Positions 14,622 through 46,249 of a stretch of DNA of 61,056 bases are shown piece by piece. Both the position numbers and the translations under genes were made by a program. This DNA comes from a virus. The stretch lies in the IMG/VR virus record IMGVR_UViG_3300027498_000004, positions 1 through 61,056 of that record; one strand, written 5' to 3'. How positions within the stretch are numbered: the first letter of the stretch is position 1; the number at the start of each line of letters is the position of its first letter. The notes under the pieces were generated by a model. That model had not been told where the DNA came from, did not search any database, and was given only the letters and a program-made list of their open reading frames with translations.

Positions 14622-14631
14622 ATAAAAAGAT

Positions 14632-18424: not shown

Positions 18425-18433
18425 TAGACTATC

Positions 18434-18694: not shown

Positions 18695-18724
18695 AATATC
18701 ATACCTTAGATATAAATTTAATGA

Positions 18725-20050
18725 ATGTTTCAAGTAAAGACACCCGTTCTAAGACCAGTCGCGGATCCAGAGGATATCGGGGGTTTTTTCAATACGGATA
18801 AACGCATCCTAGTTCCTCACTATGGGAACGAAAAATATTCATCACAAAATTTTCTAACAGTATTATTCGACCTGACTAGCTTATCAAGTAGCTTCAATAC
18901 TGTGCGTGATAAGATCCAGGAGTTTGCCTTTTCATCAAGCGTATCTATCCAGAGACAAACAGAGCCTTGCTTGATTGTAGAGGGACAGGATACTTCAGTC
19001 AATGCGGAGCAATCATCTGCTTTCGTAAACTTCATGAAGGATAGAAACTTCAAGCTTCCAATGATCAAGGATCTATGCAAGCAGATGGACTTTAGTTATA
19101 AGTGGTCTGGTAACATCTTCTTGAAGATAAAGCGAGTGACCGTTGGATCCACTATTCTCTACTTCTACAAGGTGCTTTCGCCTTTAGAGTCATTCTATAT
19201 TTATACTAAGCCAGGTAAGCAGAGATTCCTCTTAAATACTCCAGAGCTTGATGAGGAAACTATTAAGAAGAAGGGCAGAGTTTATCCTGTATCGTATATG
19301 AACAAAGACCTTGTATTCAATAAAGGGAAGCAAGGAGTGGAAGAGACCGTCCTGCATATCGCCAACCATAAGAATGGATCAGTGTGGTATGGCCAACCGA
19401 ATATCTCCAGTATAATGGAGGAGCTCTTCATCGAGTATAAAGAGACCGAGAAGTGCTGCAAGAATGCCTGCACCGATATTATAGCGAAGGGTGCCTGGTT
19501 GTTTCCTGGTCTTCCTTATGATGAAGATAAAGGTGGCAATAATAACAAAGACGACAACTTCCGAGTCTATATGCGAGAGCTAAAGACTATGACTACCAAT
19601 GAAGGGGATATCTCCGAGGTGAGTAGTATGGTCGGGCTGGAATATCCACAGGGGACCGATAGACCTGAGTGGGTGCCTATGGACTACAAGATCAATGTAG
19701 AATCGACAAAGTTCTCTCTAGAATCAGCCAGAAACGAAATCTATGCCAACCAAGGCTGGTTTCCTGAGCTTACAGGCAAGGTACAGGCTAAGAGTGGCAT
19801 TGGTGACAGTAGAATGATCAATCTATACATAGTGGCCAATCAATCGACTGTTAAGCCATTACAGGAAGATTACCAGAACTATATGGGATATCTATTCTCA
19901 CAGATAGCAAAGCATGAGAATGTTACCGAGTACCAGGGCATGACGATCAAGTTTACCGATAAGGTGGAGGAGCTTGTCACAGCATTGCGTGGAACAGAAA
20001 ATGAAAGCACTCCTGCAGCAGAAACAAACCCTGATCCAGATGGCACATAA
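18725..20050 (+). CDS. portal-like protein
   Basis: 441 aa. Size and a central pattern (...VLHIANHKNGSVWYGQPNISSIMEELFIEYKETEK...) resemble portal proteins. It is not adjacent to terL. Confidence 0.5.
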   Translation: MFQVKTPVLRPVADPEDIGGFFNTDKRILVPHYGNEKYSSQNFLTVLFDLTSLSSSFNTVRDKIQEFAFSSSVSIQRQTEPCLIVEGQDTSVNAEQSSAFVNFMKDRNFKLPMIKDLCKQMDFSYKWSGNIFLKIKRVTVGSTILYFYKVLSPLESFYIYTKPGKQRFLLNTPELDEETIKKKGRVYPVSYMNKDLVFNKGKQGVEETVLHIANHKNGSVWYGQPNISSIMEELFIEYKETEKCCKNACTDIIAKGAWLFPGLPYDEDKGGNNNKDDNFRVYMRELKTMTTNEGDISEVSSMVGLEYPQGTDRPEWVPMDYKINVESTKFSLESARNEIYANQGWFPELTGKVQAKSGIGDSRMINLYIVANQSTVKPLQEDYQNYMGYLFSQIAKHENVTEYQGMTIKFTDKVEELVTALRGTENESTPAAETNPDPDGT

Positions 20051-20744
20051 TACACTACTCCAACCACAAGATATCAAAGAGCATATTGGTATAATGAGCT
20101 CTATGGCTGCGTGTGAGCTGAGGCACATCCGAAAGGTCGAGCTATTGCAATTTAGAGAGTGCCTGGGTAAGGCTTTCTATGACTACCTGAAGGATCACTT
20201 AACCGATGTGAGCAAATGTACGAACTGGTGCGAGTATGACGACCAGGGAGAGCCGAAGTACTACCAGGAGGGAGATATCGTAGTATATGACGGCATTCTA
20301 TATGTAGCATGTAAAACAACCAAGGCGATTCCAGTAGTAGAGGGTGAATGGAAGCTGGTCCAGAAGTTTACAAAGGACTGCCTCAATGAGCTCTGGTGCG
20401 ATTATCTATGCGAATACTTAGCATGGGAGGTATTTAAGAACAGAGCTCCATACTTGGGCATAAGAATCGGTCCAGATGGATATATCAAATCAACAGGTCG
20501 GGACTTTGTACCAGCCGACTATAAGGATAAAGAATTCCTCTCCAGGACCATTGATCGCGATGTTTGCATTGCCTGGGATAACCTGGAGGACTTCTTAAAA
20601 GAAAATGAGAGTGGCTGCTTTGATCTATTCAAAGGAAATGCGAAGGGATCCTGTGGATCGTGTGGATGCTTAGATAAAAAGTGTACGTGTCAAAAAGACT
20701 GCGGAGACGCTAAGAGAACAAAATATAAGAGACGGATTGGTTGA
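20040..20744 (+). CDS. hypothetical Cys-rich protein with a CBM5/12-like segment
   Basis: ATG 20040 is in the ORF-track frame (the track start at 19974 overlaps the portal-like gene). YYQEGDIVVYDGILYVACKTTKAIPVVEGEWKLV resembles carbohydrate-binding W/Y motifs. Confidence 0.6.
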   Translation: MAHNTLLQPQDIKEHIGIMSSMAACELRHIRKVELLQFRECLGKAFYDYLKDHLTDVSKCTNWCEYDDQGEPKYYQEGDIVVYDGILYVACKTTKAIPVVEGEWKLVQKFTKDCLNELWCDYLCEYLAWEVFKNRAPYLGIRIGPDGYIKSTGRDFVPADYKDKEFLSRTIDRDVCIAWDNLEDFLKENESGCFDLFKGNAKGSCGSCGCLDKKCTCQKDCGDAKRTKYKRRIG

Positions 20745-21096
20745 TCTAATAAAAAAGAGGCTCAGGGAGCACACTGTAAATTATATCGGTAATATAGTTA
20801 CTGCAGGTCAAGAGCTTGTTTCTCCAGAGCATGAGAAAGCGAGACGGGACATCTGTAAAGGGTGCGATTTGCTTGAAATGGTTACTCTTCCACCTGTCCC
20901 TTGGATCGGTCCAATACAGGTTCCAGGGTGCGGAGGATGCAAGTGCCCAATAAAAACTAAACCCAAAGCTGTCAAGTATCGGAATTTTAAAGATGGTAAA
21001 CCGTTAGAGATAAAGACGAACATCTGTCCTCATCCAGATGGAAACAAATGGGAGGACGTAGACAATAAATATTTTTCAAGTAAAAATCCAAAGTAA
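20737..21096 (+). CDS. hypothetical Cys-rich protein (119 aa)
   Basis: ORF track; TTG start overlapping the previous stop. CKGC...CGGCKC motifs. Confidence 0.55.
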   Translation: MVDLIKKRLREHTVNYIGNIVTAGQELVSPEHEKARRDICKGCDLLEMVTLPPVPWIGPIQVPGCGGCKCPIKTKPKAVKYRNFKDGKPLEIKTNICPHPDGNKWEDVDNKYFSSKNPK

Positions 21097-21097
21097 A

Positions 21098-21847
21098 ATG
21101 AGAGTTCCAATTTTAAATATGTTCCTTTTAGCAGCAAATATGCTCGGACGCCTTAGAGCGAATCCTGCAGCATGCCCAACAAACAGCATGAAGCTTCCAG
21201 CTTGCAATGACTGTACTGATGATCCAGTATGCGAAGACGTAATCACCCTTACAAAGGATGAAGGAAACGTTCTTGTATCTATTGACATACAAGGTGAGAC
21301 TTGTCCTGTCAACTTACCGTTGAATGATCCGAATATCGAAACTAAGCTTCATGAAATCGTAGCTAAGTATGAGATCGATACTCATGTTTCAGTTGCTGTT
21401 GAAGATGGCAAGTGTACAATCCGACACATCGGTGCTGGTACTCTTGACAACGCAGTAGTTGGAAACAAGACTTATAATACAGAGCGATGCTGCAACTTCG
21501 TTACTGTTACCACTTACAAGACTTATGCGACAGGTACTTTGCCAGACCTTAAGTATGTAAATGCTGATGGTGTTGAAACGAGTGAGGCATTTCCAAATAG
21601 TCCTTATGACTATGCAGGAACGGCAGCAGTGGATGCTGCAACAGCTGCTCAATTAGAGACAGACCTTATCGCTGGACTTGATGCGATTGCATATCCATAC
21701 ACTTCAGCCACTGTGACTGTAAGTGATGATGATGAAGGATTTTTCCTTTGTGTTGAATCAGATGGTTCTATTCCAGTTATGATTGGAAGCCTGCCATTTG
21801 CAAACTGCGGAAGTGAAGGAGCTTTCGTTTGTGGTGAGGATAAGTAA
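21098..21847 (+). CDS. hypothetical Cys-rich protein (249 aa)
   Basis: ORF track; tight spacing. Confidence 0.7.
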   Translation: MRVPILNMFLLAANMLGRLRANPAACPTNSMKLPACNDCTDDPVCEDVITLTKDEGNVLVSIDIQGETCPVNLPLNDPNIETKLHEIVAKYEIDTHVSVAVEDGKCTIRHIGAGTLDNAVVGNKTYNTERCCNFVTVTTYKTYATGTLPDLKYVNADGVETSEAFPNSPYDYAGTAAVDAATAAQLETDLIAGLDAIAYPYTSATVTVSDDDEGFFLCVESDGSIPVMIGSLPFANCGSEGAFVCGEDK

Positions 21848-21874
21848 TTAGTAATCGCATAATAAACCAATATA

Positions 21875-23053
21875 ATGCCTGGTAAAACTTGCAATATCAT
21901 ACTTGTGACGATAGCACACTGTTTCATACGCATCAAGAATACGTGCGATGGATCAGTATGCTATGCCACTGGTATAAGCAAATGTGTCGGTAATAACATT
22001 GTCTTTTCAATACAAGGTGGAGGTTCACTAAATGTCAATTATACAGATATAGCGAATCATGGTTTTGATAACATCGAAGATTTTAAAGAAGATCTACTTG
22101 CCGAATTAGAAGCTTGCTCAAACAATGTTACTCTGGAAGGCGATGTCATGTTGCCTGACGATATAGAGGTCCAGCTTGAGAAGTTTGGTACCACTTCATT
22201 TCCAATGTGCAGAAAGTCTGACGGTGAAAATTGCCAGATCATATATTGCGTTGAGGAAGGCGTGGAAACTTATCAGGAGGCTGGAACTACTATTAAGTTG
22301 ACGCCAGCTCAATTTTTAACTGCATACGAGAAGTGCAAGCCAGCAAAGACGTTCATTGATCGGGGTTGCTACTATTTGACATCAGAGGAAGATCTACCAG
22401 CTCAAAAAAGGAACTATGTTCTGTTTGATCAATATACTGATGGCACTCAAGTGTGCACAGTTCCTGCAGGGGAAGCACCTGCAGCGGATGGAAGTAATTT
22501 CGTAACCAATATAAATGAATATACTATGGCTTCAGATAAGCTTGGGTCACTGCCCGTATTGAACAGTGAGATTAAAACAAAGAAAGGGCGAGCACTTGAC
22601 GTATGTGGTGGTGCAGCTGGATTTGAATTGACAGTAGCGATACTTTTAGCAGCAGCATCTGTTGTTGATGACTTGGCATCGTTGGCTGCAAAGATCATTC
22701 CTGAGCCTGGATACAAGTGGGACTTGTTAGGATTCGAAGTGAACCAACACCCTGCTAAGAAATTAGTGCATTGTGATATTGCTGATGCAGAAGGTACTGT
22801 AAGTTCAAACGAACAGGCATTCTATGCTTTAGGAGGCGACACAAAGCAATTCATTACCGTTGGAGATTCCAAGGATACTATCATGAAGCTATTACCAGAT
22901 GCGGATGCATGTGGATGCCTTGGTGATCCTACATGTCTGCTTACAGATGCGGATCTAACAACACCGTTGACTTTGGCTGCTAATACAGCTGTTGAAGTAT
23001 GTCCAATCTTCGTCTGCGTTATCGATCCAGATGCGAAGAGAGAAGAAGCATAA
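21875..23053 (+). CDS. hypothetical Cys-rich protein (392 aa)
   Basis: ORF track. Confidence 0.7.
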   Translation: MPGKTCNIILVTIAHCFIRIKNTCDGSVCYATGISKCVGNNIVFSIQGGGSLNVNYTDIANHGFDNIEDFKEDLLAELEACSNNVTLEGDVMLPDDIEVQLEKFGTTSFPMCRKSDGENCQIIYCVEEGVETYQEAGTTIKLTPAQFLTAYEKCKPAKTFIDRGCYYLTSEEDLPAQKRNYVLFDQYTDGTQVCTVPAGEAPAADGSNFVTNINEYTMASDKLGSLPVLNSEIKTKKGRALDVCGGAAGFELTVAILLAAASVVDDLASLAAKIIPEPGYKWDLLGFEVNQHPAKKLVHCDIADAEGTVSSNEQAFYALGGDTKQFITVGDSKDTIMKLLPDADACGCLGDPTCLLTDADLTTPLTLAANTAVEVCPIFVCVIDPDAKREEA

Positions 23054-23070: not shown

Positions 23071-26000
23071 ATGATACAACTGATGAAACATAAAGCCTTA
23101 CTCATAACAGCCATACTATTGTGGGTAAGGCTTTTGTCTTTTGCACAACTCGGAGGAGTTGAGAACTGGTTTCCTGCATGTGATACCTTAACAGGAGAAG
23201 TGATCTATATCCAGCAATCGGAGCTGATCGATGACTGCTGCTGGGAGTGGAATGGAGATAACTGGGAGAAAAGAGAAAACTGCGATAATGTAGATTCAAA
23301 CTGCATTGAAACTTCTATCTATACCGAGGAGCTTTGCTATCATGGCATCTTTCACTGGTATGACAACACAACTCCCTCAAACGGAGCCTGTGGCCTTGTA
23401 TCGGCAAACTATGGTCTCAATCCAAATGAAACGACCTGGATAGGGTTTGAAAACAAATGCGATATATATGATCCATTTATCGGGCACACCAATACTGCTC
23501 CGAATCTAAATGGATACTTCGATGATATGAATGATTACTTGACGGCTAATACCGACTCCGAGTGGGTATGGGGTTTAAATACTCCCGATAAGTGCTGGAG
23601 ATACTTCTCCACTATATCAAAGGATGAATGTTACGGAACGTGGACTTTGGACTATAAAGGAAATGAAGTGACAGTAGTTCCAAGAAGGGAATATAAAAAA
23701 TGCGAAATAACAAAGAAGGTCTGCGAATATAAGATGGACGGTCAAATCATCACTGATGAGTTCTTTTACGGAACAGATGTCGATGGTAATGATTCTCTAT
23801 TGCTAGACCTTCCCCAATATATAATTGATTGCACTGGATGGGATCCAGTAGTAGTCAATAAGATTTATCAGGATAATGGCGATGTGATTAATTGTTTAAC
23901 TACAGATTGCACCGAGAGAACTCTTACTGAAATAGAGAATCCATGTCCAATACAATCTTATGGTCCTTTTTGCGATTATGATTACAATGTAGAGACTGAT
24001 GAGTGTGTAATAAATGCAACGGAAATATACCTTGATATCGATTGTAATGGTGTGAACTGGTTTTATACTATCTCCGAAGATGGTGTTACGCCATACGAGG
24101 AGCCTGTTGGCGAGATAGGGAACTGCGATTGTACACAGATCGTAACAGAGCCTCAAGGATGCCCTGAAGGACTGAACTGGCAGTGTGTAACTACAGGCGA
24201 GAGCAGCTATGGTATACTTGACAACTCATTGTATACTAATCTTCCAACTAATCACCTGCAGAACGGTAACAACTATGAATTCACTCTTTTGCACGAGGAT
24301 GGTACCACTACTGTGATCCAGCAATCAGCAAATACATATTTTGGGAACTTTAGAACGATATTAGAGGCAGCATTGCCAGAATGTAAGGTCGTCTATGTGT
24401 GTGCAAATCATACAAGCCCGAACGGATGCAATGCTGGCTTTGTGAGTAACTTGGCACAATATCCTGCATACGATGCGCCAACGGCTCCTGGAGATGTACA
24501 GAACAATCTCAACAATCCAGCACAGTCCGAGTTATGGGCCACAGGTTGGTTGATAGACTGCCAGTCGTGCGTGAGTCCTATTACCAGGGTGACAATTACA
24601 AATGCAAATGACGCTTCTCATATAGGAGCCTTTAAGGATATCATCAATTATAAAACACCAGGAGAGCAAATCTTCCAAGCAGTTGATTGTGGGAAGATCT
24701 ACTATCAAAGCTGCGATAATCCTCCAGTTGCCCTTGAAGCACCAGACTGTAAGCCAACTCTTTGTCCAGCAGGAATATCAGATGATGAAATAGAAGACCA
24801 ATGCACAACATCTTCTATTATAGGATGTGTCGATGATAAGACTTTGCTTTTAGTTATTGAGACCTGTAAGGTGGATACAACTGGATTAGATTGTAATCCT
24901 GATGAGTTGACAGTATTGTATGCTTCAGATGAATTTGAGGGTACTCCTGGAATAACACAAACTGCAAATGGATGGGATCAACTCACATTTGGAGATAATA
25001 AAACTGGAGCAACATCTCAAACACAAGCAACATCGGATGTTGCTAATGCAACGGGGCCAAGTGCAGCTGGAATATTGGGTGTTTCAAATTGTGGAGATAC
25101 TCACATGCAATCCTTAATTGGAGGTACTGGAGCGACTGTATTTGGTGAAGGTTTAAAAAAGACATTTACAGGATTGACTATTGGAGCTCAATTGTGCATT
25201 GACTTTTCTCAAGCAGTATCTAATCAAACAAATGGATGTTTTGATAGAGGAGGCTGGACAGTATGCCTTGATGATAACTTAGCTTCCGCACAAAATTCGG
25301 CTGAGACAATTGATCCAGCACAGGAGACCAATCCAACAAATCCAAATTTGAATTGGGAGAATAGAAATGCATGCTTCAACATAACAGCAACTACGCATAC
25401 TTTATCCTTGACTCCTTATTCAACTGATCAAGACTATACTTGTGGGAATTGGCTTGGAAGGATGGCTATTGATTGTGTTGAGGTAACTGAATCAAGCGCA
25501 GGAGGTTCAAATGATCCGCTTTGTTCTTGTGCTGAAATAACATGCGTAACTGATCCAGTAACAGGAGACAATTATGATATTGAAGATATCTCTTTGGTAC
25601 CATGTGGAACTAATGATGTGTGTTTCGATATAGAGCAAAGTTCAGAACTTGTTTGTATTAATGATGGATTAGAAAATATACTTGCTTTTGCGGTTAATGA
25701 AATATTAGCGGACTGTATAACTGGTGAACAAGTAGGACAAAATAACTATTTCACAGATTTAGAAGGGAATACATATAATTCTACAGATGTTACATTTAGT
25801 GAAGATTGTGAAGGAGTAGTCATTGAAGGTCAAGTTTGTACAAATGGTGAAACATTAAACACCCTTACAATAGATGGAGTTACAACATATTATGACTTAG
25901 GAGGAAATCAAGTGATCAAGATTGGTACAATTGATTATGTTGGGGCATGTATTGAGCCGACAAGTATATTTAAATGTTGTGCTGTTAATTTTGGTAATCA

Positions 26001-26787
26001 AATCGAAGGATTTATAAATGTTGGAGAAGGAGGATATTACATCACTGATTTTCAAGGCAACATTCTCCCTGAAGCTGAGCCTTTCGATTGTGAAAGTTGT
26101 ATTCAAGTATTTGGATGCAGAGATGGAAGACTTGCATGGCCAGCAGGAAGCGTAGTAACGATGTCTAATGGTGATCAATTAGATATATCGGGACTTAGAT
26201 ATACACAAGTTGCTCAATTAATAGTTGATACTTATGGAGGGAGCTATGAAGCTCCAAGTCTAGGTGGACCAATGGGTGCAAACTTTTCACAATGTCAAGG
26301 TAGCTCTCAACATGAACTTCAGTTCTACAATTTGCCAGTTGCAATCGTATCCATTGATGAGATGGATAACTATGGAAAATTTGGACAATGTGGAGCTAAT
26401 GAAATAGCAGATGTTAATTGGGATTATTGTGTGAATGGTAAAAAGGTCAAACTGATTACTTATTTAGATGGATCTACAAGCATAATTGATCCTTCGAATA
26501 ACTCAAGTATTAATGGAGTTCTTGGATGCTGTGATTGTGAAGCTGTTGATTGTGGTCAAGGCTGTGAAGTGACTGAAGGAGGAGGTATACCAGGAGAATC
26601 GTTTATTGTTAGTTGCGAGCTCTCTTGTCAAGTTGGCGATAATATAATCATATACAATGAAGACTGCTCTGTGAAGTGCACAGGGACTATTTCTGGATTT
26701 GGTCTAGATGGCCAAGGTGGAACTAAAATACAACTATCGAGTAGAGATTGCTTTCCAATTATAGGACAAACTGTAAGCTGTGAATAG
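23071..26787 (+). CDS. very large Cys-rich protein with an N-terminal signal peptide
   Basis: 1238 aa. N-terminus MKHKALLITAILLWVRLLSFAQ (alternative ATG at 23086). Dozens of Cys throughout. Confidence 0.8.
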   Translation: MIQLMKHKALLITAILLWVRLLSFAQLGGVENWFPACDTLTGEVIYIQQSELIDDCCWEWNGDNWEKRENCDNVDSNCIETSIYTEELCYHGIFHWYDNTTPSNGACGLVSANYGLNPNETTWIGFENKCDIYDPFIGHTNTAPNLNGYFDDMNDYLTANTDSEWVWGLNTPDKCWRYFSTISKDECYGTWTLDYKGNEVTVVPRREYKKCEITKKVCEYKMDGQIITDEFFYGTDVDGNDSLLLDLPQYIIDCTGWDPVVVNKIYQDNGDVINCLTTDCTERTLTEIENPCPIQSYGPFCDYDYNVETDECVINATEIYLDIDCNGVNWFYTISEDGVTPYEEPVGEIGNCDCTQIVTEPQGCPEGLNWQCVTTGESSYGILDNSLYTNLPTNHLQNGNNYEFTLLHEDGTTTVIQQSANTYFGNFRTILEAALPECKVVYVCANHTSPNGCNAGFVSNLAQYPAYDAPTAPGDVQNNLNNPAQSELWATGWLIDCQSCVSPITRVTITNANDASHIGAFKDIINYKTPGEQIFQAVDCGKIYYQSCDNPPVALEAPDCKPTLCPAGISDDEIEDQCTTSSIIGCVDDKTLLLVIETCKVDTTGLDCNPDELTVLYASDEFEGTPGITQTANGWDQLTFGDNKTGATSQTQATSDVANATGPSAAGILGVSNCGDTHMQSLIGGTGATVFGEGLKKTFTGLTIGAQLCIDFSQAVSNQTNGCFDRGGWTVCLDDNLASAQNSAETIDPAQETNPTNPNLNWENRNACFNITATTHTLSLTPYSTDQDYTCGNWLGRMAIDCVEVTESSAGGSNDPLCSCAEITCVTDPVTGDNYDIEDISLVPCGTNDVCFDIEQSSELVCINDGLENILAFAVNEILADCITGEQVGQNNYFTDLEGNTYNSTDVTFSEDCEGVVIEGQVCTNGETLNTLTIDGVTTYYDLGGNQVIKIGTIDYVGACIEPTSIFKCCAVNFGNQIEGFINVGEGGYYITDFQGNILPEAEPFDCESCIQVFGCRDGRLAWPAGSVVTMSNGDQLDISGLRYTQVAQLIVDTYGGSYEAPSLGGPMGANFSQCQGSSQHELQFYNLPVAIVSIDEMDNYGKFGQCGANEIADVNWDYCVNGKKVKLITYLDGSTSIIDPSNNSSINGVLGCCDCEAVDCGQGCEVTEGGGIPGESFIVSCELSCQVGDNIIIYNEDCSVKCTGTISGFGLDGQGGTKIQLSSRDCFPIIGQTVSCE

Positions 26788-27607
26788 AATTATTATAGGC
26801 ATATTATTATTGTTTCCTCTTTTTGCTTTTAGCCAAGAGTTTGACTTGTCAGATTGTTGTGATAGATCATCTGAATCACAAGTGCTTGATCTTGAGTTTA
26901 AAACTATATACCAAGAAGAGTTTGCTGGTGGAGCCAATGGCAAACTAGGTTCTAATATATGGACTAGAAATAGTACTGTAGTTCAAACAGCAGAAGGACA
27001 ATTCACAGTCACCTTCGATACGCCACATCCTGATGGAGTTTTTTATCATATTAGCTATGAAGGCATTGAGGATAATTTAAGAGACAATCCAAAAGTGACT
27101 ACAATAGAAGGAACTAAGTCAGCAAATGGATTTCAAGTTATGATAACTGTAGATGATAATGGTGCTGGTGCAGATATCTATGAAGATAACGGATGGTCAT
27201 TTTCTGTTGCTGCTCCTTGTGAGGTTTTAAGCAACGCAAGTTTATCGCAAGGAGGGGATGCTGGATCAGATAATGAAGGCTCTCCTTCCTTACCAGCAGC
27301 TAATGGAAAAGTTGTCTCTGATAATTTTCAAGATCAGCAGTTTGTTCCTTTCAATCTTCAAGTAAGAAATACAACAAATGCTCCAGTGCAATGGGAGGCA
27401 TACTTACAGAGTGTTCCATATTGCACAATACCAAATATTACTTATCCACAAGGTTTTACAGCTGTGCTTGTTACCACAAATAATATAGATGGAACTTGCA
27501 ATCACTTATTTAGTGGATCTTTGCCAGCATTTGAAAATATTGAAATTAAGGCAGATGTAGTTTTGCCATTTGGTAATCAATCAGGATTAACTCTATACTG
27601 TCAATGA
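26780..27607 (+). CDS. exported protein (signal peptide MNRIIIGILLLFPLFAFSQ)
   Basis: GTG start overlapping the previous stop. Typical n-h-c signal region. Confidence 0.7.
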   Translation: MNRIIIGILLLFPLFAFSQEFDLSDCCDRSSESQVLDLEFKTIYQEEFAGGANGKLGSNIWTRNSTVVQTAEGQFTVTFDTPHPDGVFYHISYEGIEDNLRDNPKVTTIEGTKSANGFQVMITVDDNGAGADIYEDNGWSFSVAAPCEVLSNASLSQGGDAGSDNEGSPSLPAANGKVVSDNFQDQQFVPFNLQVRNTTNAPVQWEAYLQSVPYCTIPNITYPQGFTAVLVTTNNIDGTCNHLFSGSLPAFENIEIKADVVLPFGNQSGLTLYCQ

Positions 27608-28071
27608 GAAAGATAATAATAATCACAGCAATTATATTTGCATCAATTACTGCCCAAGGGCAAAACTACTTTGAGTGGGTGATGCCAACTGAAAAAGGAG
27701 ATGTTTCATATTTACTTTTAACAGATCAGGGATATGAAACCTTATTAAAGCCTTTGCAAATACAAGATAGTGGAGATTTAGCTGAGGAGCTACTGACTAT
27801 GAGGGCTGAGATCACCAATAATAGAGAGTTGATCGATAAGCTATATTCTATAATTAAAGATTTACAAAATCAAGAATCTAGTTTAAGTGAGACTTCACAA
27901 AAAATTCTTGATTGTCTTAGAGATGATACTGAGAATCAAATTAAGGCTAGGGGATTCACAATTGCACAATATAAGCAATTTGCTTTTGAATTAGAGTTTG
28001 ATATTAAGGAACGGAAAGAAGATGCAATAATCAATGAGTTGAAAGACTGGTACAAATCAAATAATCAATGA
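27604..28071 (+). CDS. exported protein (signal peptide MRKIIIITAIIFASITAQGQ)
   Basis: ATGA overlap. The N-terminus is paralogous to the next ORF. Confidence 0.75.
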   Translation: MRKIIIITAIIFASITAQGQNYFEWVMPTEKGDVSYLLLTDQGYETLLKPLQIQDSGDLAEELLTMRAEITNNRELIDKLYSIIKDLQNQESSLSETSQKILDCLRDDTENQIKARGFTIAQYKQFAFELEFDIKERKEDAIINELKDWYKSNNQ

Positions 28072-28478
28072 GAGTAATTATAATAATAGCAATACTAGCA
28101 TTCTCTTTCAATGCGCAGGCACAGCGGTACTTTGTATCTGAAAAAGAAAATTCGACTCAATATTGGGTTCTTGATAGCCTTAGTGCTTCAAACTTTAATC
28201 TTGGGAAGGAAATTGCAGAGTCTACTTATAAAAGTATGCAAGTATCAGAAGAGACTAAGATTAATGAGCAGATATCTGTAATTGATACTCCAATAGCTAA
28301 GGAGATAAATCTTCTTAAATCAATTGCTCCTAATGCGACATTTATATTTAAAAGGTACAATTTGTCAAACTCAAATAAAAATGGATTCTCGCTGAGGGAA
28401 ATAGCGACAGAATTAAAGATTGATCATTTAAATAAAAGAAAAAAGGACTTGTCCTATGAGATATATAATACTTTTTAG
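28068..28478 (+). CDS. exported protein (signal peptide MRVIIIIAILAFSFNAQAQ)
   Basis: ATGA overlap; signal peptide. Confidence 0.75.
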   Translation: MRVIIIIAILAFSFNAQAQRYFVSEKENSTQYWVLDSLSASNFNLGKEIAESTYKSMQVSEETKINEQISVIDTPIAKEINLLKSIAPNATFIFKRYNLSNSNKNGFSLREIATELKIDHLNKRKKDLSYEIYNTF

Positions 28479-29184
28479 TTTTTTACTTTCATTCATATCA
28501 GTAAGCGCACAACAAGTAAGTGATGAGTGTGCAAACTGCTTCACATGTACACAGCTAATGCAGTGCTTCGGTGATGTAGTATGTGCCGACTGTGATGTAG
28601 AAAATGAAATACAAACTTTTTCTAGTCCTGGAGGCACAATTGTATTTAGCCAATCAGATCCATTAAATATAAAGATGGATGTTAATCTAGAATGCTGCGA
28701 AGTATTGTGTGCATCTACACCTGCGCTTGGAACGCAAGCAAGTATAAGTGGTGTAAATGTAGGTTCTCCATTTATAAGCGATCCCTTCAGCATAATTACA
28801 TTAGCAAATGCCAATTCTTGTGAAGCTGTTGCAGATATAGATATCGCCTTTCCAGATGTAGACATTATTTTAATTGATGCGTATGTAGAAGTTAGAGGTC
28901 AATATCAAATTTTAGTGAACGGAGCAGCAGTTGAGGGATGGGTAGATTCAAGAAGAATAAGATTCGATAGAAGAAGTGTTACAGGTGGGCCACACCCTAG
29001 ACAAACGCTTGGCAGTAATTTCAATATAGGAAAAATATATGTTGCTCCAGGAGATGTTATTCAAGTTCAACAAAGAGTTGTTGTGGTCAAATTAAATGAT
29101 AATAATGCCTTTGATGATATTATAAATATAGTCAATGGTCAATCAAAAATAAGTTTATATCCAAGGTTCATTTACGCAAAATAA
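28456..29184 (+). CDS. exported Cys-rich protein (signal peptide MRYIILFSFLLSFISVSAQQ)
   Basis: ORF track; signal peptide. Confidence 0.75.
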   Translation: MRYIILFSFLLSFISVSAQQVSDECANCFTCTQLMQCFGDVVCADCDVENEIQTFSSPGGTIVFSQSDPLNIKMDVNLECCEVLCASTPALGTQASISGVNVGSPFISDPFSIITLANANSCEAVADIDIAFPDVDIILIDAYVEVRGQYQILVNGAAVEGWVDSRRIRFDRRSVTGGPHPRQTLGSNFNIGKIYVAPGDVIQVQQRVVVVKLNDNNAFDDIINIVNGQSKISLYPRFIYAK

Positions 29185-29196
29185 AAATTACTTAAG

Positions 29197-31488
29197 ATGA
29201 AAAATAGAATATTTACAATAGTGCTTTTACTCTTTGCCTGCAGCTTAAGTGCTCAGAAGTTTGGAGTATCAGGTTTTGAATGCCATGTAAAAAAGAAAGT
29301 TACAAACTTTCAATGCTCAAGCTGTCCTACTGGTACTACAACTATGTGGTTAAACGGATTAGAGATTAAGAGACCTGGTCAAGGAAATGACTTCTTGCAA
29401 GCTCCAATATTTCTTTCTAAAGCAAAGGGAGGTAATGTTGTCTTAACTGGAAACGATGGTACATATACTGAGTTTAAGAAGCCTCAAGGCATGAGCTTCA
29501 ATGATATCAATGATGAAATTTGTGATTGCAATAAGGCTGTATTAGCTGGATTTGATCCAGATGAAGATCCAATGAATGAAATTCAAGCAGTCACATCTGA
29601 TGATGGGAGCATAACTGTCATACCTAACGGTATAGATTTTGATTTAAGTGTGAACTTTCCCGAATGTTTAGACTGTGATCCTACAAATGAAAATGTTATT
29701 GAAGTATCAATCACAGATGAAGATGGCGATGGTGTTTATGATGTTGTTATAACAAATGCAGATGGCACTACCGTAGATACTACTTTTGAAATTCCACCTA
29801 GTGTATTTGTTCCAGCATTTACTGAAGGAGTTTCAATAGGTGTGCATACTAATGGGCTTGGTGATGATGTAGAAGTATTTATTCCTGAGTGTTTAGATTG
29901 TGATCTTACTAACGAAATACAAAATATTTCATCTCCTGATGCAAGTATAATAGTAACTCCAAATGGGAATGATTTTGAAATAACAGTTCCAAGTGGAGGA
30001 GGTAACACTTCAAGTGTAAGTACACAAGTTGATGGAGATGGAAATACAATATACACACATGATGATGGTGATCCCGCTACACCTTCTGTCGATTGGTGTT
30101 TAGGAGGAAAACTTGTAGATCACTCTGGAGCAACTTTAGATTTAAATTGTAATGATATATTATTTAATGAAGATATTTCTTTAACAGATGATACAAATCT
30201 AAACACTCCAAATGGAATTGGTGTATCGGGTGCGGAATTTTCAGATAGTCCTATTAATGGGCATACAACCGAAACACGAATTGCAAACATAGTTTCAAGT
30301 AACGGTGATAATTCTGCTTTATGGTCCATCCTATCTGGTATAGCCAATGTTAATGCAGTAGGTGGAACAGGATCATTTGTAACTGGTACTGCCAACACAG
30401 TAGACGGTGCTTTTTCAATTACAGGCGGTCTATTAAATAATATGGCTGTTGGTAATGGTACTGCTCGAAGAGGCATATTATTAATGGGTAGAGCTAATAC
30501 AGTAAGTGGAACAGCTGGATATTCTCTAATTGGTGGAATTGCAAATATAGCAGCAGGCAATAGTAGAGGATCTATGATGGTGGGTAACACTAATATAAAC
30601 GAAGGTACATTTTCATCTATTCATGGTACTACGAATCAAAACAGGCCTGGTGGTGGTAACTCCTTAGTTGGCGGTTCTAGTAATATTAATGATGGTTTGC
30701 AGAATATAGTACATGGTACATTAAACGAGAACTATCAAAGGCAGTCTTTTGTAACAGGTGGATTTAATATTGTCAGTAGTAATAACGTGGCTGCTTTCCC
30801 AAATGGAGGTAATACATCAATTACTGCAGGACAGAGGAATATGCAATACTCGCAAGCTACTCTGATGGTTGGCGAAGATAACATTGCATGGGATGAATCA
30901 CCAAGATCAATAATTAGTGGTGCTTTAAATACTATCAAGTGTCAGGATTGTATTGTAACTGGTCAGAATAACGACTTGCCTTTTGATATGAGAAGAAGTG
31001 CAATCATAGGAGGTAATGATATTGAACCTCAAATTATTGAGGTTGATCAAGTTTACGTTCCACACTTACATATATGGGGAGGAAATGCTGCTCCTGGTAA
31101 TTCTACAGGCACAGCAGGTATGACAGGACCAAATGCTTATCCTGGAAATCCAACAGATTTATTAGCAGCTGATCCCAATGATGAATATGAAGTTAAAAAG
31201 GTAGCAACAGCAACATTGGGTATTGGATCAATGCGCAATACAAAAGAAAATATAAACCCCACTGGTGATGAACTTTTAGAATGGTTAAAATCAAGTGAAG
31301 TTGCATATTGGAATTATCTCGATGATGATATTAATCATGTTGGAGTGATGGCTGATGACTTCGGTAAGCTTGGATTGGGTACATCTGAAGAGACTATTTC
31401 TTTTGCAGATCAAATGGGAGTATTAATGGGTATAGTTAAGGCTCAACAAAAAGAAATCGAATTACTAAAACTTAAAATTAACGAATAA
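29197..31488 (+). CDS. tail-fibre-like protein with N-terminal signal/lipoprotein peptide and C-terminal S74 intramolecular chaperone domain
   Basis: N-terminus MKNRIFTIVLLLFACSLSAQ. Duplicated ECLDCD(P/L)TNE / NEIQ modules. C-terminus SMRNTKENINP...INHVGVMADDF...GIVKAQQKEIELLKLKI matches the endosialidase-chaperone pattern. Confidence 0.7.
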   Translation: MKNRIFTIVLLLFACSLSAQKFGVSGFECHVKKKVTNFQCSSCPTGTTTMWLNGLEIKRPGQGNDFLQAPIFLSKAKGGNVVLTGNDGTYTEFKKPQGMSFNDINDEICDCNKAVLAGFDPDEDPMNEIQAVTSDDGSITVIPNGIDFDLSVNFPECLDCDPTNENVIEVSITDEDGDGVYDVVITNADGTTVDTTFEIPPSVFVPAFTEGVSIGVHTNGLGDDVEVFIPECLDCDLTNEIQNISSPDASIIVTPNGNDFEITVPSGGGNTSSVSTQVDGDGNTIYTHDDGDPATPSVDWCLGGKLVDHSGATLDLNCNDILFNEDISLTDDTNLNTPNGIGVSGAEFSDSPINGHTTETRIANIVSSNGDNSALWSILSGIANVNAVGGTGSFVTGTANTVDGAFSITGGLLNNMAVGNGTARRGILLMGRANTVSGTAGYSLIGGIANIAAGNSRGSMMVGNTNINEGTFSSIHGTTNQNRPGGGNSLVGGSSNINDGLQNIVHGTLNENYQRQSFVTGGFNIVSSNNVAAFPNGGNTSITAGQRNMQYSQATLMVGEDNIAWDESPRSIISGALNTIKCQDCIVTGQNNDLPFDMRRSAIIGGNDIEPQIIEVDQVYVPHLHIWGGNAAPGNSTGTAGMTGPNAYPGNPTDLLAADPNDEYEVKKVATATLGIGSMRNTKENINPTGDELLEWLKSSEVAYWNYLDDDINHVGVMADDFGKLGLGTSEETISFADQMGVLMGIVKAQQKEIELLKLKINE

Positions 31489-31769
31489 TGAAATATTTAG
31501 CTGTTATAATTTTACTCGCAATTTCAACTATTGCATATTCTCAAACTGTGCAAGAGGTATGGGTACATAGTATTGACAATGAAGGATTTGAAGAAAAACA
31601 ATATCATGTATTTGATGAATCTAGAAAGTTGGTAGGTAAATTTTTTCCTTCTCAGGATAATGATGAGCAAACAAGAAAAAGAGCTGAAGACTTTGCGAAA
31701 AAATTTAAGCCTGTAATCATTAATGAAACAAAGCCTATTTTAAGAAAAAAGGAAACAAAAAATAAATAG
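31488..31769 (+). CDS. small exported protein (signal peptide MKYLAVIILLAISTIAYSQ)
   Basis: TAATG junction; signal peptide. Confidence 0.7.
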   Translation: MKYLAVIILLAISTIAYSQTVQEVWVHSIDNEGFEEKQYHVFDESRKLVGKFFPSQDNDEQTRKRAEDFAKKFKPVIINETKPILRKKETKNK

Positions 31770-31771
31770 TG

Positions 31772-32683
31772 ATGAGGTATCTAACTATAATATTTGTACT
31801 GCTGTCATTTAATCTTCACTCACAAGAGTTTTGGTATGAAGATTCAAACATAGGAGTAGCAGCAGGATTCCCCAACGACTTTGCAGAAATGTGGAGGCAA
31901 CCTTGTATGTGGCAAGATATTAGATCTAAGACTGATGTATACATGATAAGAGGTATTTCACTATCTAACTTTGTAAATCAATATGGTGAAAAGTTCTTAA
32001 CTGATACACTTGCAAAAGTATTGGTTGATAACGGGTTAAGTTTAGCAATTGATAATCCCCCATCCAACTTTGAGCACTTATATAACTTGCTGACTGGAGC
32101 TGGAGTTAATATCACACACATAGCAATACAGAGTGCCTTATCGAGACCGAGAGAGTTTTCTCCTAGATATAATCCTGAATTAGAACTTAGGATAGGAGAA
32201 GTTAAAAGTCAAATATTGCAGTTTGAGAAGTTTGCTCCTAATGCTCAATATGGAATTATAGATGCTCGTCCAACTAAAGGTTGGGATTATGAATATGCAT
32301 ACAGGAGACTCAAAAAAGTATTAAGAAATGGTGGAAGCAATCTAGATTTTATAATTTTAGATTGCCCTTACGGATTCCCTAAATATGGAAATAATTTGAC
32401 ATTTCAAACGCTCAAGAATATTGAGAGTTATGTTAAAGATAATTTGAATCTAAACTATGGATTCATTATTACTGACAACTTTGGTGGTAAACATTCAGAG
32501 CAAAGTTTTCATGATGGTGTACTAGATTATGGAAGAGATTGTATAGCTAACGGATTAAATCCCGACTATTACATTTTAATGTCTTGGTATGCTTATCCAA
32601 AAAATGCTCTACCAGAGAAACCTCTTAGAGGAGGATATTCAATGACAAAAACTGGCTTAGCCTTATTTGATATCCTTGATTAG
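31772..32683 (+). CDS. exported protein (signal peptide MRYLTIIFVLLSFNLHSQ)
   Basis: ATG at 31772 (the track uses GTG 31769). 303 aa; no catalytic motif recognised. Confidence 0.75.
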   Translation: MRYLTIIFVLLSFNLHSQEFWYEDSNIGVAAGFPNDFAEMWRQPCMWQDIRSKTDVYMIRGISLSNFVNQYGEKFLTDTLAKVLVDNGLSLAIDNPPSNFEHLYNLLTGAGVNITHIAIQSALSRPREFSPRYNPELELRIGEVKSQILQFEKFAPNAQYGIIDARPTKGWDYEYAYRRLKKVLRNGGSNLDFIILDCPYGFPKYGNNLTFQTLKNIESYVKDNLNLNYGFIITDNFGGKHSEQSFHDGVLDYGRDCIANGLNPDYYILMSWYAYPKNALPEKPLRGGYSMTKTGLALFDILD

Positions 32684-32885
32684 ATTAATCTACATACTGC
32701 CCTTTTTACTATATCCGAGTGATAACACAGTTTACTCACTTGATATAGTAAAAAAAGAGGGAGAACTTGTTTTGAGGTATGATAGTTATGGAATGTCGGA
32801 TGAGCAAGCAATGAAAATATATAGAGCTATGATTTGTGAAGAAATTGAATTAAAAAGAGTTCAACTAGAAAAATACGATAAGTGA
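32667..32885 (+). CDS. hypothetical protein with a hydrophobic N-terminus (TTG start, uncertain)
   Basis: ORF track only. Confidence 0.4.
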   Translation: MISLIRLIYILPFLLYPSDNTVYSLDIVKKEGELVLRYDSYGMSDEQAMKIYRAMICEEIELKRVQLEKYDK

Positions 32886-32899: not shown

Positions 32900-32998
32900 A
32901 TGAACAGTTGTAAATCTCATGCTTGTAAGAGCAACAGGCTATTTTTTGTCAGCTGTGCATTGATAGTTTTTTCACTTATTATATTAGTATGTTTCTAA
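32900..32998 (+). CDS. candidate 32-aa single-TM peptide at the head of the lysis cassette
   Basis: ATG ORF MNSCKSHACKSNRLFFVSCALIVFSLIILVCF, too short for the ORF track. Confidence 0.3.
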   Translation: MNSCKSHACKSNRLFFVSCALIVFSLIILVCF

Positions 32999-33363
32999 CA
33001 ATTCATTTCACTTCAAATATGGTTGCAGTAATATTTGCTGGGATCGCTGGACTACTTGCTGCCTGGGCAAAGATAGAGAGTGCTAAAGCCGTAAAGGATA
33101 CCAGACAACTCACTGCATTAAAAGAAAGCAATGAAACGCTCATCAAGGTTAACGAGGATCTACGAAATACCTGTCATGATCTCATGGAGGACAATGCATC
33201 GCTGAGGGTGGCAATCAATAAGATGAAAGAATCCTTCGAGACGACAGAAAAGACACTGTTAGCAGAAATTGACCGTAAGGAAAACGTTATACAAGAGACG
33301 ATGAAAAAATATGAGACTTTAAAGCTTCGTTTCGATGCTCTCGAGAAGAAGTTGAACCAGTAA
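32989..33363 (+). CDS. membrane-anchored coiled-coil protein (lysis-associated, spanin/holin-accessory-like)
   Basis: N-terminal TM VAVIFAGIAGLLAAWA followed by a coiled coil. Alternative ATG at 33019. Confidence 0.6.
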   Translation: MFLTIHFTSNMVAVIFAGIAGLLAAWAKIESAKAVKDTRQLTALKESNETLIKVNEDLRNTCHDLMEDNASLRVAINKMKESFETTEKTLLAEIDRKENVIQETMKKYETLKLRFDALEKKLNQ

Positions 33364-33373
33364 ATTTTGAATC

Positions 33374-33637
33374 ATGAATGATTTTTTAGCTCCAATTATT
33401 GACAACCTAAAGGCAAGAAGCCCAAGGCTATTTTTATTCATACAGTTGATCCTGATGGGATTGTTGTATATCATTAATCAAGGTGCGGACCTCGGAGTAA
33501 TCGAGCTCACGCCAGTGATTAAACAAATAGGCACCTGGGTAAACTATGTGATCATCCTATTGATAGGTGGAACAGGATCGAGGACTACTCGATATGTCCA
33601 GATATCTCCTCCAGGAGAATCCAAACAAGCTGCATGA
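33374..33637 (+). CDS. holin-like membrane protein (2 TM)
   Basis: LFLFIQLILMGLLYII and WVNYVIILLIGGTG hydrophobic helices. Located just upstream of the endolysin gene. Confidence 0.55.
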   Translation: MNDFLAPIIDNLKARSPRLFLFIQLILMGLLYIINQGADLGVIELTPVIKQIGTWVNYVIILLIGGTGSRTTRYVQISPPGESKQAA

Positions 33638-33669
33638 TAATCTTTGTAACATAATTGTGAAATCTAAAA

Positions 33670-33701
33670 GGGGAATGACTGAGAGGCCATTTCCCTTTTT
33701 T
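33670..33701 (+). terminator. intrinsic terminator between the holin-like gene and the endolysin gene
   Basis: GGGGAATG (33670-33677) pairs with CATTTCCC (33688-33695; 8 bp including one G-U), followed by T6. An A4 tract lies upstream. Confidence 0.55.
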
Positions 33702-33714
33702 CAATAGAAGACCG

Positions 33715-34311
33715 ATGGGAAAGACTGTAATACTAGACAATGGCCACGCTGGAATGATTAATGGGAAGTATTCCACTCCTGGCAAGAGATCACCGAACTG
33801 GAGCAAAGGAGTGCTGTATGAGGGCGCATTCAATAGATGGATCGTCAACGGCATAATGCGGATCCTGGACAGGAATAAAGTGCCATACTACCATGTTAGT
33901 CCAGAGCTGCGAGATATTCAGCTACAGACCAGGGTAAGACGTGCAAATAAGATTTATAGCAATAACAGAGATACTTACCTATTGAGCATCCATGCCAATG
34001 CTGGAGGAGACACAGGAATAGAAGGATTCACTTCTCCTGGAGAAACCAGAGCCGACCATATAGCAGATACCTTCTTAAAGAACTTTGAAGCCAAGTTCCC
34101 ATCGATAAAGACCCGATTTGACTATTCGGATGGAGATCGCGATAAAGAGGCTGCATTCTACGTATTGCGAGAGACTTCTTGTCCAGCCTTCCTCTTCGAG
34201 TGTGGCTTTATGGATAACCAGGAGGATTACATGCTACTCACCGATCCAGAGTTCCAAGATATGACATCTGCAAACCTCGCAGGATCAATCATGGAGTTAT
34301 ATAATGGATAA
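33715..34311 (+). CDS. N-acetylmuramoyl-L-alanine amidase (Amidase_3) endolysin
   Basis: VILDNGHAG...LLSIHANAGG...AAFYVLRETSCPAFLFECGFMDN, the typical Amidase_3 pattern. Confidence 0.85.
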   Translation: MGKTVILDNGHAGMINGKYSTPGKRSPNWSKGVLYEGAFNRWIVNGIMRILDRNKVPYYHVSPELRDIQLQTRVRRANKIYSNNRDTYLLSIHANAGGDTGIEGFTSPGETRADHIADTFLKNFEAKFPSIKTRFDYSDGDRDKEAAFYVLRETSCPAFLFECGFMDNQEDYMLLTDPEFQDMTSANLAGSIMELYNG

Positions 34312-44800: not shown

Positions 44801-45138
44801 GAACGTCAGACCTTAGAGTAGCAAAACATGAGATATTTAACTTCCAGAGTTTCCTCAATGAGACAAATAGCATCAGCAGTTCATTGGTCACTAATAGTAA
44901 GTTTGGATTGTATCTGTACCCTTTCGCCAATCAAGTCTTCCATGAGAAAGGACCTAACAAGCTCAAGGAGGTTTTAGATGTAATATTCGAAGCATTGGAC
45001 TTCCTGGAGAAGAAGGTATTTCCTGGATCAACAGCTTTGCTTTTGAAGTTGCCTGTGCTGAAATGGATAATTATTGGTAAATTCACATATAAATTTATTA
45101 TTGACATCCATAAATTGCTATCAAATGAAGAAGCTTAA
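44797..45138 (+). CDS. hypothetical protein (113 aa)
   Basis: ORF track; ATGA junction upstream. Confidence 0.5.
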   Translation: MRTSDLRVAKHEIFNFQSFLNETNSISSSLVTNSKFGLYLYPFANQVFHEKGPNKLKEVLDVIFEALDFLEKKVFPGSTALLLKLPVLKWIIIGKFTYKFIIDIHKLLSNEEA

Positions 45139-46249
45139 CATTCTATTTTCGTTTTTATTCCTCATTACATTATCCTTTGCTCAGGAGAGGATAATCGTAT
45201 ACGATACACCACCTCCAGAGTCTGAGATAGACTGCTCACTACCAACTCCAATCATCCAAAATAAGGCAAGAGCCCTTTCCCAAATAGACCCTTACCCAAG
45301 GGAGATGCATGGGATACAGTTTGCACACTCTAAAGGTTGGACTGGAAAAGGTATTAAAATTGCTATCCTGGACACAGGAGTAAAGGCACACGATGACCTT
45401 CCTAGCGTTAAAGAAATAAGAGACTATACTGGCGACTCTAATTGCTGCGACAACCATGCGACACATGTATTTGGTACCAATGCAGCACTAGATAATACTT
45501 TTGGAGTAGTAGGATCTTGTGAACCAGATTTATATGACTTCCGAGTATTAGATAATAATGGATCAGGTAGCTCGATCCGAATCGGTGAAGCCATTGTAGA
45601 CGCTGCGGACGCTGGTATGGATATTATTTCCATGAGCCTTGGAGGAGACCCAAACCAAGCATTAAAGGATGCCTGCGACTATGCAATACTACAGGGATGC
45701 CTTGTCGTTGCTGCTGCAGGAAACTCTGGATCAGACGGTATGATATATCCCGCCAAGTGGTCAAATATCATAAGTGTATTTGCAGTTGATCAACAGAAGC
45801 AATCGCCAGACTTTAGCTCACATGGAATTGGTATTGTATCGAGTGGAGGAGTAAATATTTTGTCAACGATCAACAATGACGAGTATGCTCCTTTTTCTGG
45901 TACTTCTATGGCGACACCAACTATTTCTGGAGTGCTGGCCATAATGCAAGAGTACGCAATAGCACAGGGCAAAAGAATGACCCAGGTCGATGCTATTAAT
46001 GAGCTTATCCGAATTAGTGAGGATATTGGAGATCCAGGAAGAGATGTCAGGACTGGCTATGGAATCCCCGACTTAACTAAATACATTCTAAAGGAAAGAG
46101 GCGAGGTTGAAATAGAGCCCGATGATGATCCTATTGTTGATGAACCGATAAATGATGATCCACAAAACAATCCCCTTGCACTTGTGATAGTTCTTGGAAT
46201 ACTGATTGGAGTTGTTGGATTGATTGTATTAACTCAAAATAAAAAGTAG
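45125..46249 (+). CDS. subtilisin-like S8 serine protease with a signal peptide and a C-terminal TM anchor
   Basis: MKKLNILFSFLFLITLSFAQ. Catalytic triad: D in AILDTGV, H in NHATHVFGT, S in GTSMATP. Oxyanion region AAAGNSG. C-terminus LALVIVLGILIGVVGLIVL. Confidence 0.85.
   Translation: MKKLNILFSFLFLITLSFAQERIIVYDTPPPESEIDCSLPTPIIQNKARALSQIDPYPREMHGIQFAHSKGWTGKGIKIAILDTGVKAHDDLPSVKEIRDYTGDSNCCDNHATHVFGTNAALDNTFGVVGSCEPDLYDFRVLDNNGSGSSIRIGEAIVDAADAGMDIISMSLGGDPNQALKDACDYAILQGCLVVAAAGNSGSDGMIYPAKWSNIISVFAVDQQKQSPDFSSHGIGIVSSGGVNILSTINNDEYAPFSGTSMATPTISGVLAIMQEYAIAQGKRMTQVDAINELIRISEDIGDPGRDVRTGYGIPDLTKYILKERGEVEIEPDDDPIVDEPINDDPQNNPLALVIVLGILIGVVGLIVLTQNKK

Follow-up and report, generated by a model that had tools for sequence, protein, structure and literature searches.

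A late phage cassette of eight consecutive genes with predicted Bacteroidota-type signal peptides

Organization of the cassette and its signal peptides

The window examined here, the whole 61,056-nucleotide stretch of the IMG/VR virus record IMGVR_UViG_3300027498_000004, contains a run of eight consecutive open reading frames (ORFs; P1 to P8, positions 23083-32683, Table 1) that each open with an n-h-c signal peptide of 16-21 residues. They form a late, translationally coupled cassette in which neighbouring genes overlap by up to 23 nt or lie up to 12 nt apart; the single terminator-like site lies at the end of the cassette, and no internal promoter or terminator signal was detected. A sigma-70 scan, which does not cover Bacteroidota promoters, and a search for the Bacteroidetes TTTG...TAnnTTTG motif both returned chance-level results. 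Signal peptides are found in 13 of the 71 genes in the window (~18%), eight of them consecutive and adjoining the lysis genes. The products of these eight look like pre-proteins with true Bacteroidota-type signal peptides for the Sec system and signal peptidase I.

Signal peptides were called with a rule-based scan rather than a trained predictor. The rule calls for Lys or Arg in the n-region, a small -3/-1 site, and a stretch of at least eight uncharged residues that begins no later than residue 14 and averages at least 2.0 on the Kyte-Doolittle hydropathy scale. Of the 71 genes, 14 are flagged, and Gln occupies position +1 in 12 of them (Gln makes up 4.0% of the proteome). In all eight cassette proteins, one or two Lys or Arg residues precede an uncharged core 11-15 residues long (mean hydropathy, 2.4-3.2), and the cleavage site, with a small residue at -1 and a permissive one at -3, is followed by Gln. 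This +1 Gln corresponds to the "Q-rule," described as particular to signal-peptidase-I substrates of Bacteroidetes (PMC5837995). By permutation, eight in a row among 71 genes has a p of 4e-6, and the scan flagged none of the 19 proteomics-annotated structural proteins of Cellulophaga phage phi17:2, which served as a negative control. European Nucleotide Archive (ENA) gene calls on the same contig give identical starts except at 23083 and 31772; 23083 is Met5 of the ORF that begins at 23071. Two other ORFs flagged by the rule, 21098 and 21875, were rejected as signal-peptide proteins, having no Gln and weak cleavage sites. An earlier, sequence-only reading of the window had counted nine consecutive ORFs with signal sequences; eight of these stand, while the ninth (P9, from 32667) has neither a cleavage motif nor the Gln and is possibly a small membrane protein.

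The same reading had raised the possibility that these N-termini are uncleaved anchors. Such anchors would fix the proteins in the inner membrane, where they might, for instance, keep parts of the tail or regulators of lysis in place. Proteins elsewhere in the window do use N-terminal or internal transmembrane segments (32989, 33374, 37176, and 59792), and the hydrophobic N-terminus of P9 lacks a cleavage site. However, with 11-15 residues the cores fall short of the length of a stable transmembrane helix, and the combination of small -3/-1 residues with Gln at +1 in all eight proteins is a pattern that selection would be expected to keep only if cleavage exposes that Gln, there being no other apparent reason for its retention. 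The same pattern appears in homologues: signal peptides proved to be conserved in the relatives of P1, P6, and P8. Uncleaved anchors are therefore improbable as an account of the cassette.

Table 1. Coordinates of the cassette and of other features in the window (arrows, predicted cleavage sites; aa, amino acids; T9SS, type IX secretion system)
Feature	Position	Strand	Length (aa)	Signal peptide	Remarks
P1	23083..26787	+	1234	MKHKALLITAILLWVRLLSFA↓QLGG (SFA↓QLG)	Mosaic protein, 5.8% Cys
P2	26780..27607	+	275	…LFAFS↓QEF	8-nt overlap with P1
P3	27604..28071	+	155	…SITA↓QGQ	ATGA overlap with P2
P4	28068..28478	+	136	…FNA↓QAQ or AQA↓QRY	ATGA overlap with P3
P5	28456..29184	+	242	…SVSA↓QQV	N-terminal part Cys-rich; 4.1% Cys overall
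P6	29197..31488	+	763	…SLSA↓QKF	Fibre-like
P7	31488..31769	+	93	…IAYS↓QTV	No family assignment
P8	31772..32683	+	303	…NLHS↓QEF	(beta/alpha)8 glycoside-hydrolase-like
P9	32667..32885	+	72	Unconvincing	TTG start; hydrophobic N-terminus
Terminator-like hairpin and T-run	32921..32939	+			Between cassette and lysis genes
Lysis region	32989..34311	+			124-aa transmembrane/coiled-coil protein; 87-aa holin-like protein (two hydrophobic segments); Amidase_3 endolysin
Amidase_3 endolysin	33715-34311	+		None
Conserved module	18725..23053	+	441/256/119/249/392	None	Cys-rich; upstream of cassette
Subtilase	45125..46249	+		…LSFA↓QER	Peptidase_S8 (E 8e-38)
385-aa protein	50983..52140	+	385	…VIVA↓QVD
333-aa protein	53140..54141	+	333	…FCQA↓QCT	T9SS type-B C-terminal sorting domain
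235-aa protein	54171..54878	+	235	…TVASA↓QNE	Corrected start of ORF 54012
250-aa protein	54981..55733	+	250	…LLNA↓QDD
Large terminase	1055-2302	+
Tape-measure-like protein	6816-10124	+
Protease/capsid-type protein	15189-16307	+

Predicted products of the cassette

Searches of Pfam, PHROG, and NCBIfam returned no above-threshold match for any of P1-P9, and BLASTP among the window proteins revealed no paralogy inside the block. The C-terminal sorting domains of the T9SS (PF18962/TIGR04183 and PF13585/TIGR04131) were searched for in P1-P9 and none was found, so that the T9SS was rejected as their secretion route; P1-P8 were likewise rejected as spanins or holins on their size and domain content. 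P2-P5 and P7 are orphans in these three databases, P2 and P5 also in IMG/VR. The weak matches of P2 are to a tail fibre family (phrog_3484, E 1.5e-4) and to a Ca-tandemer adhesin repeat (E 5e-3, below cutoff). Judged from its domains, the cargo, which comprises the barrel protein P8, the fibre-like P6, P1, and five orphans, looks accessory and directed at the envelope or at glycans rather than part of the core virion.

The AlphaFold2 model of P8 (predicted local distance difference test score, pLDDT, 86) is a (beta/alpha)8 barrel whose top Foldseek matches are glycoside hydrolase (GH) families GH10, GH53, and GH30 (E 8e-6 to 5e-5, template modelling score, TM, ~0.5); sugar-epimerase and aldolase barrels also match. 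On the strength of this model, P8 is a glycosidase-like triosephosphate isomerase (TIM) barrel and a predicted enzyme. The P8 family has no Pfam or CAZy assignment; a PDB sequence search was uninformative, and a GTDB genome scan with the P8 alignment gave no match. Fourteen homologues share the catalytic-type domain at 40-56% identity, with E23, D24, D94, D164, and D192 among the invariant residues of the alignment, and [GSA]↓Q occurs at the predicted site in 11 of the 12 full-length cellular homologues (P0016 has Lys); another homologue, P0005, looks lipoprotein-like. In both domain identity and the +1 Gln, P8 resembles carbohydrate enzymes of Bacteroidota T9SS and polysaccharide loci, and two of its cellular homologues sit among sulfatase, GH127, and GH106 genes. 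Most homologues are ~400-440 aa long with a C-terminal extension, annotated as the T9SS type-A domain PF18962 in two of them, whereas the phage protein lacks a T9SS C-terminal domain.

P6 consists of the signal peptide, D-x-x-NEIQ repeat modules, Gly/Asn-rich repeats, and a C-terminal S74-type chaperone-like region; an alternative lipobox, LFA↓C, is possible. In ending with an S74-like region it resembles S74 fibres of the endosialidase K1F type, and its sole close relative, P0002 (32% identity), which starts with MKIKLLIFLFLSAFYLYSNA↓QD, is annotated with PF13884. However, the Peptidase_S74 match of P6 itself (aa 680-722; E 0.023, 15.4 bits) is below the Pfam cutoff of 22, and the modules in its N-terminal part resemble proteins of bacterial chromosomes rather than a tail adaptor. 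To our knowledge, classical S74 fibres assemble in the cytoplasm and carry no signal peptide. A search of a representative library gave 223 matches at E <= 1e-3; among the matches listed, most fall on aa 670-763, and the top ones are Flavobacteriaceae proteins with a signal peptide plus Gln. When the repeat modules were used in a full HMMER search, the best matches were again large signal-peptide-plus-Gln proteins, two of them from Flagellimonas and Ulvibacterium, the latter in an ordinary nonphage chromosomal locus adjoining CHU_C (T9SS type-B) proteins. P6 thus shares its signal peptide plus Gln and its D-x-x-NEIQ modules with Flavobacteriaceae surface-fibre loci, in which "beta strand repeat-containing" or PTL_trimer proteins stand beside CHU_C; those proteins are cellular, lie in nonphage surroundings, and reach 1,378-2,586 aa, whereas P6 is smaller and belongs to a phage late operon. 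No PTL_trimer match was found for P6 in the Pfam search, a PDB sequence search with P6 was uninformative, and the clusters looked up for small S74 proteins yielded no names.

On the Ulvibacterium chromosome (L027, 10001-23847), large fibre-like PTL_trimer proteins with a signal peptide plus Gln alternate with CHU_C T9SS type-B proteins, and the locus looks like a cellular counterpart of the phage P6 and of the CHU_C protein encoded elsewhere in the window.

P1 has 23 homologues, and the family, which is phage-only, comprises Cys-rich mosaic proteins of 740-1840 aa. The N-terminal domain is 59-62% identical in other homologues that bear signal peptides. The central domain (~aa 300-560), marked by the motifs YGILDNS, VCANHTSPxGC, and ELWAxGW, is 44-58% identical across contigs of 37-62% GC and occurs in signal-less proteins from other phage contigs; its AlphaFold2 model (pLDDT 74) has no match in PDB or BFVD. 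The start of the closest relative had been mis-called, and its corrected N-terminus is MMAKRIFLFLVLMVTISFVYS↓QSK. Within the 24-member family, all full-length members with AT-rich amino-acid usage carry a Q-rule signal peptide or a lipobox (P0019 after correction of its start); the AT-rich exceptions look N-terminally incomplete, P0029 lacking an initial Met and P0020 aligning only from P1 residue 346. None of the 15 GC-richer members has either. The lipoboxes of the homologues P0021 and P0041 point to membrane tethering of P1 variants. With a conserved N-terminus and a variable remainder, P1 is built like a fibre, and from its sequence it looks like a large, phage-specific, Cys-rich binding or enzyme module.

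The premise of the sequence-only reading, that the block looks like a fibre or late region, where Sec-type signals would be unexpected, is justified in part: P6 has its S74-like C-terminus and P1 is fibre-like, but P8 and the small ORFs are not, and the repeats of P6 match chromosomal Flavobacteriaceae surface proteins.

Cysteine content does not distinguish the exported set. Several block proteins had been described as very Cys-rich, which is true of P1 (5.8%, 72 Cys) and P5 (4.1%) but not of the other six (0-2.2%). Nor could this richness be attributed to an oxidising compartment, because signal-less neighbours (10387, 5.2%; 19974, 6.6%; 21875, 4.8%) and signal-less homologues on a contig of 61.5% GC are equally Cys-rich; Cys-richness was accordingly rejected as a marker of export. 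Many signal-less late proteins contain 4-8% Cys, both here (10387-23053) and on contigs L020, L023, and L026, and likewise in the 61.5%-GC phage contig. Cys-rich late proteins, probably structural, seem to be a trait of a wider phage group that export does not explain. One of them, the signal-less module protein at 19974-20744, matches DUF6712 above the Pfam cutoff and, weakly, the cellulose-binding family CBM_5_12_2. The window also encodes tRNA-Cys (gca; 56032-56103, +) and tRNA-Met (cat; 3985-4058, -), and a phage tRNA-Cys fits late proteins with such unusual Cys content (4-7%).

Signal peptides elsewhere in the genome

At least six exported or anchored proteins had been proposed outside the block. 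Of the six named, five (45125, 50983, 53140, 54171, and 54981) carry signal peptides, while the sixth, 37176, has an internal transmembrane or signal-anchor segment ahead of a glucosaminidase domain and not a signal peptide. The N-terminus of the 53140 protein combines an atypically long, acidic n-region with a hydrophobic core and the site CQA↓QCT; its C-terminus matches PF13585 CHU_C (38.1 bits, cutoff 27) and TIGR04131 (39.8 bits, cutoff 35). Taking this T9SS type-B protein together with the subtilase at 45125, the phage clearly encodes predicted exported proteins that are not virion parts. Three of the five (53140, 54171, and 54981) form a second, smaller exported run outside the late region.

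Two peptidoglycan hydrolases are present, the signal-less Amidase_3 endolysin (33715-34311) and, ~3 kb downstream, the glucosaminidase behind an N-terminal transmembrane segment (37176-37811). No spanin was recognised in domain searches of the window proteins.

Related cassettes in other phages

The layout recurs on the low-GC contigs L021, L023, and L026, and more loosely on L019: a P1-like protein with a signal peptide comes after a Cys-rich module that lacks them, other genes for signal-peptide proteins or lipoproteins are close by, and lysis-type genes adjoin where visible. The module upstream of the cassette is syntenic with those of L021 and L023, and that of L026 looks comparable in the sizes and order of its genes. 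Identity to the L021 and L023 counterparts is 54-59% for P1, as against 22-32% for neighbouring structural genes and only 25-32% for the upstream module. This conservation of P1 relative to its structural neighbours suggests exchange between phages, or constraint from the host rather than from the virion. On the 61.5%-GC contig with a P1 homologue, none of the 17 genes has a signal peptide. Unrelated contigs, L012 and the crAss-like L024, also carry signal-peptide-plus-Gln proteins, including a metalloprotease-like protein and a sulfatase fragment; in L024, such proteins occupy the slot of the proteomics-annotated fibres of phi17:2.

The metalloprotease-like protein with a signal peptide and the sulfatases lie at 4526-5359 and 13108-13293 of L012 and at 12339-13724 of L024. 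The sulfatase fragment of L012 has a signal peptide, while that of L024 appears to lack one.

Recurrence bears on whether the cassette could be an artefact, either host DNA misassembled onto a phage or a product of mis-called ORF starts. The lower GC content of 26780-32885 (34.9%, compared with 40.7% for the genome) and the host-like domains of P6 and P8 would fit such an origin. However, the same gene order is found on four contigs from ENA, JGI, and Logan, with the neighbouring genes in place; the credible genes of the window all lie on the + strand, and the junctions of the block overlap into phage genes on both sides. The ENA starts agree at all but the two positions given above, the layout is shared with L021, L023, and L026, and a 9-bp repeat, ATTGCAGCT, is present at both ends of the window (~34 tandem copies at 3-307 and ~25 at 60836-61056), suggesting a complete genome. 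An artefact is very improbable.

Interpretation

The best reading of these data, to which we assign a probability of roughly 0.55, is that the block forms a late and variable cassette whose accessory products are truly exported, directed at the host envelope or surface glycans, and freed at lysis. An unusually large fraction of the proteins of this phage would then probably leave the cytoplasm rather than enter virions assembled there. Among the explanations offered in the sequence-only reading, a phage-encoded secretome is best supported: the Q-rule holds in all eight proteins, their signal peptides are conserved, and the cargo is of extracytoplasmic type (a TIM barrel and, outside the block, a subtilase and a T9SS type-B protein). 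Export, cleavage, periplasmic location, and function are all predictions from sequence. The host Sec system would carry the proteins across the inner membrane, signal peptidase I would cleave before the Gln, and a host glutaminyl cyclase would convert this residue to pyroglutamate. Since T9SS C-terminal domains are absent from all eight and P6 alone has a possible lipobox, most should gather in the periplasm, where they would accumulate late in infection and leave with the virions at lysis; the T9SS type-B cargo and the subtilase, encoded by separate genes, would reach the cell surface or the medium. Most likely the cassette proteins would act on polysaccharide or receptors at the host surface by binding, trimming, or masking them, which could aid the escape of progeny or block re-adsorption and superinfection.

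Several observations weigh against this reading. The cleavage and the location it assumes derive from rule-based sequence calls, and six of the eight cassette proteins have no demonstrated function. The cassette occupies the classic fibre slot, after a structural-looking module and before the lysis genes, and the L024 proteins lie in the corresponding slot of phi17:2. The C-terminal region of P6 is of a chaperone-like kind that phage fibres typically have, and P1 follows a fibre-like logic, with a central domain that is shared with signal-less phage proteins, perhaps virion components.

The position of the cassette, the fibre-like features of P1 and P6, and the L024 proteins favour the main alternative, in which P1, P6, and perhaps others are virion fibres for host recognition. 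After export they would acquire their fold and disulfides in the periplasm and join particles built in the cytoplasm only once the holin has breached the inner membrane or the cell has lysed. The position of the cassette beside the lysis genes on L023 and L026 as well as in the window, the occurrence of the L021 P1 after the same module, the 72 Cys of P1, and the lack of a recognised spanin would also be in keeping with it. However, exported fibres have no known precedent among tailed phages; the signal-less neighbours of P1 are as rich in Cys; lipoprotein versions of P1 exist; and the N-terminal modules of P6 belong to chromosomal bacterial surface proteins. Other large signal-less proteins (10387, 11985, 18725, and 21875) could be the receptor-binding proteins, and P8, the subtilase, and the T9SS cargo would be nonvirion exported proteins made in any case. 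Assembly after lysis would, by reasoning rather than from data, also be kinetically poor. We consider virion fibres of this kind unlikely. It is a doubtful proposition, too, that in a group of Bacteroidota phages P1-like and P6-like recognition fibres are exported by Sec, trimmed to pyroglutamate, oxidatively folded, and attached after the holin has opened the membrane; we know of no tailed phage in which tail completion is split across two cell compartments.

Exported accessory proteins, in comparison, have known parallels. Phage lambda Lom and Bor, T5 Llp, and phi80 Cor are Sec-exported envelope proteins whose genes adjoin those for the tail or for lysis, and they do not form part of the virion. 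Such moron and superinfection-exclusion genes are single and small, often coding for lipoproteins or outer-membrane barrels and frequently with their own promoter; the cassette differs from these in comprising eight translationally coupled genes, some for very large proteins. Within Bacteroidetes phages, five Q-rule signal-peptide genes of unknown function were described across several Porphyromonas gingivalis "Nixviridae" prophages and interpreted as a means by which phages alter the envelope through the host Sec system (Matrishin et al., 2023; PMC10367356), and rumen Bacteroides phages have been reported with one or two signal peptides (PMC5723332). The P. gingivalis genes resemble those described here in that removal of the predicted signal peptide should leave Gln at the N-terminus; that study (PMC10367356) reports no contiguous late cassette, no fibre-like or 1,200-aa cargo, and no T9SS sorting domains, all of which are present in the window. 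A literature search found no published description of a phage cassette of this type. The principle has been published, and what is new is the load of 13 signal peptides in 71 genes, their contiguity in a late cassette, the large and fibre-like cargo, the phage-borne T9SS sorting domain, and the recurrence of the layout in several uncultured contigs of probably marine phages.

If these proteins are exported, such phages would be reshaping the envelope of infected Flavobacteriia-type cells or the glycans around them, with a bearing on marine polysaccharide turnover and on phage host range. P1 and P6 further pose the question of whether any tailed phage exports its fibres.

Phage genome and host

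The window looks like the complete genome of an uncultured tailed phage, and its genes also include RecT, a helicase, and an extracytoplasmic function (ECF)-type sigma factor. The identical 9-bp arrays at its two ends suggest one ~500-bp array across the junction and hence a genome that is circular or terminally redundant; what was listed as an "ORF" at 4-321 (QLLQLL…) is the repeat array itself. Neither megablast of the block nor tblastn of P1, P6, and P0056 found a match among 50,697 phage records, leaving the phage with no cultured relative and no link to proteomics. IMG/VR scans with P6, P2, and P5 found no relatives, and a scan with the large terminase (TerL) recovered distant fragments only. 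Because the phage encodes a T9SS type-B domain (53140) above both curated cutoffs, its host is probably a T9SS-bearing member of the Bacteroidota, a marine flavobacterium likely of the Flavobacteriaceae.

The phage ECF sigma factor (4784-5266) scores below the curated cutoff for the GFO_1088/PG0214 sigma family, which it resembles. P3 (27604-28071) weakly resembles the GFO_1090 family, with a score well below cutoff that may reflect chance; judging by locus tags, the GFO_1088 and GFO_1090 families would be close to each other in the reference genome.

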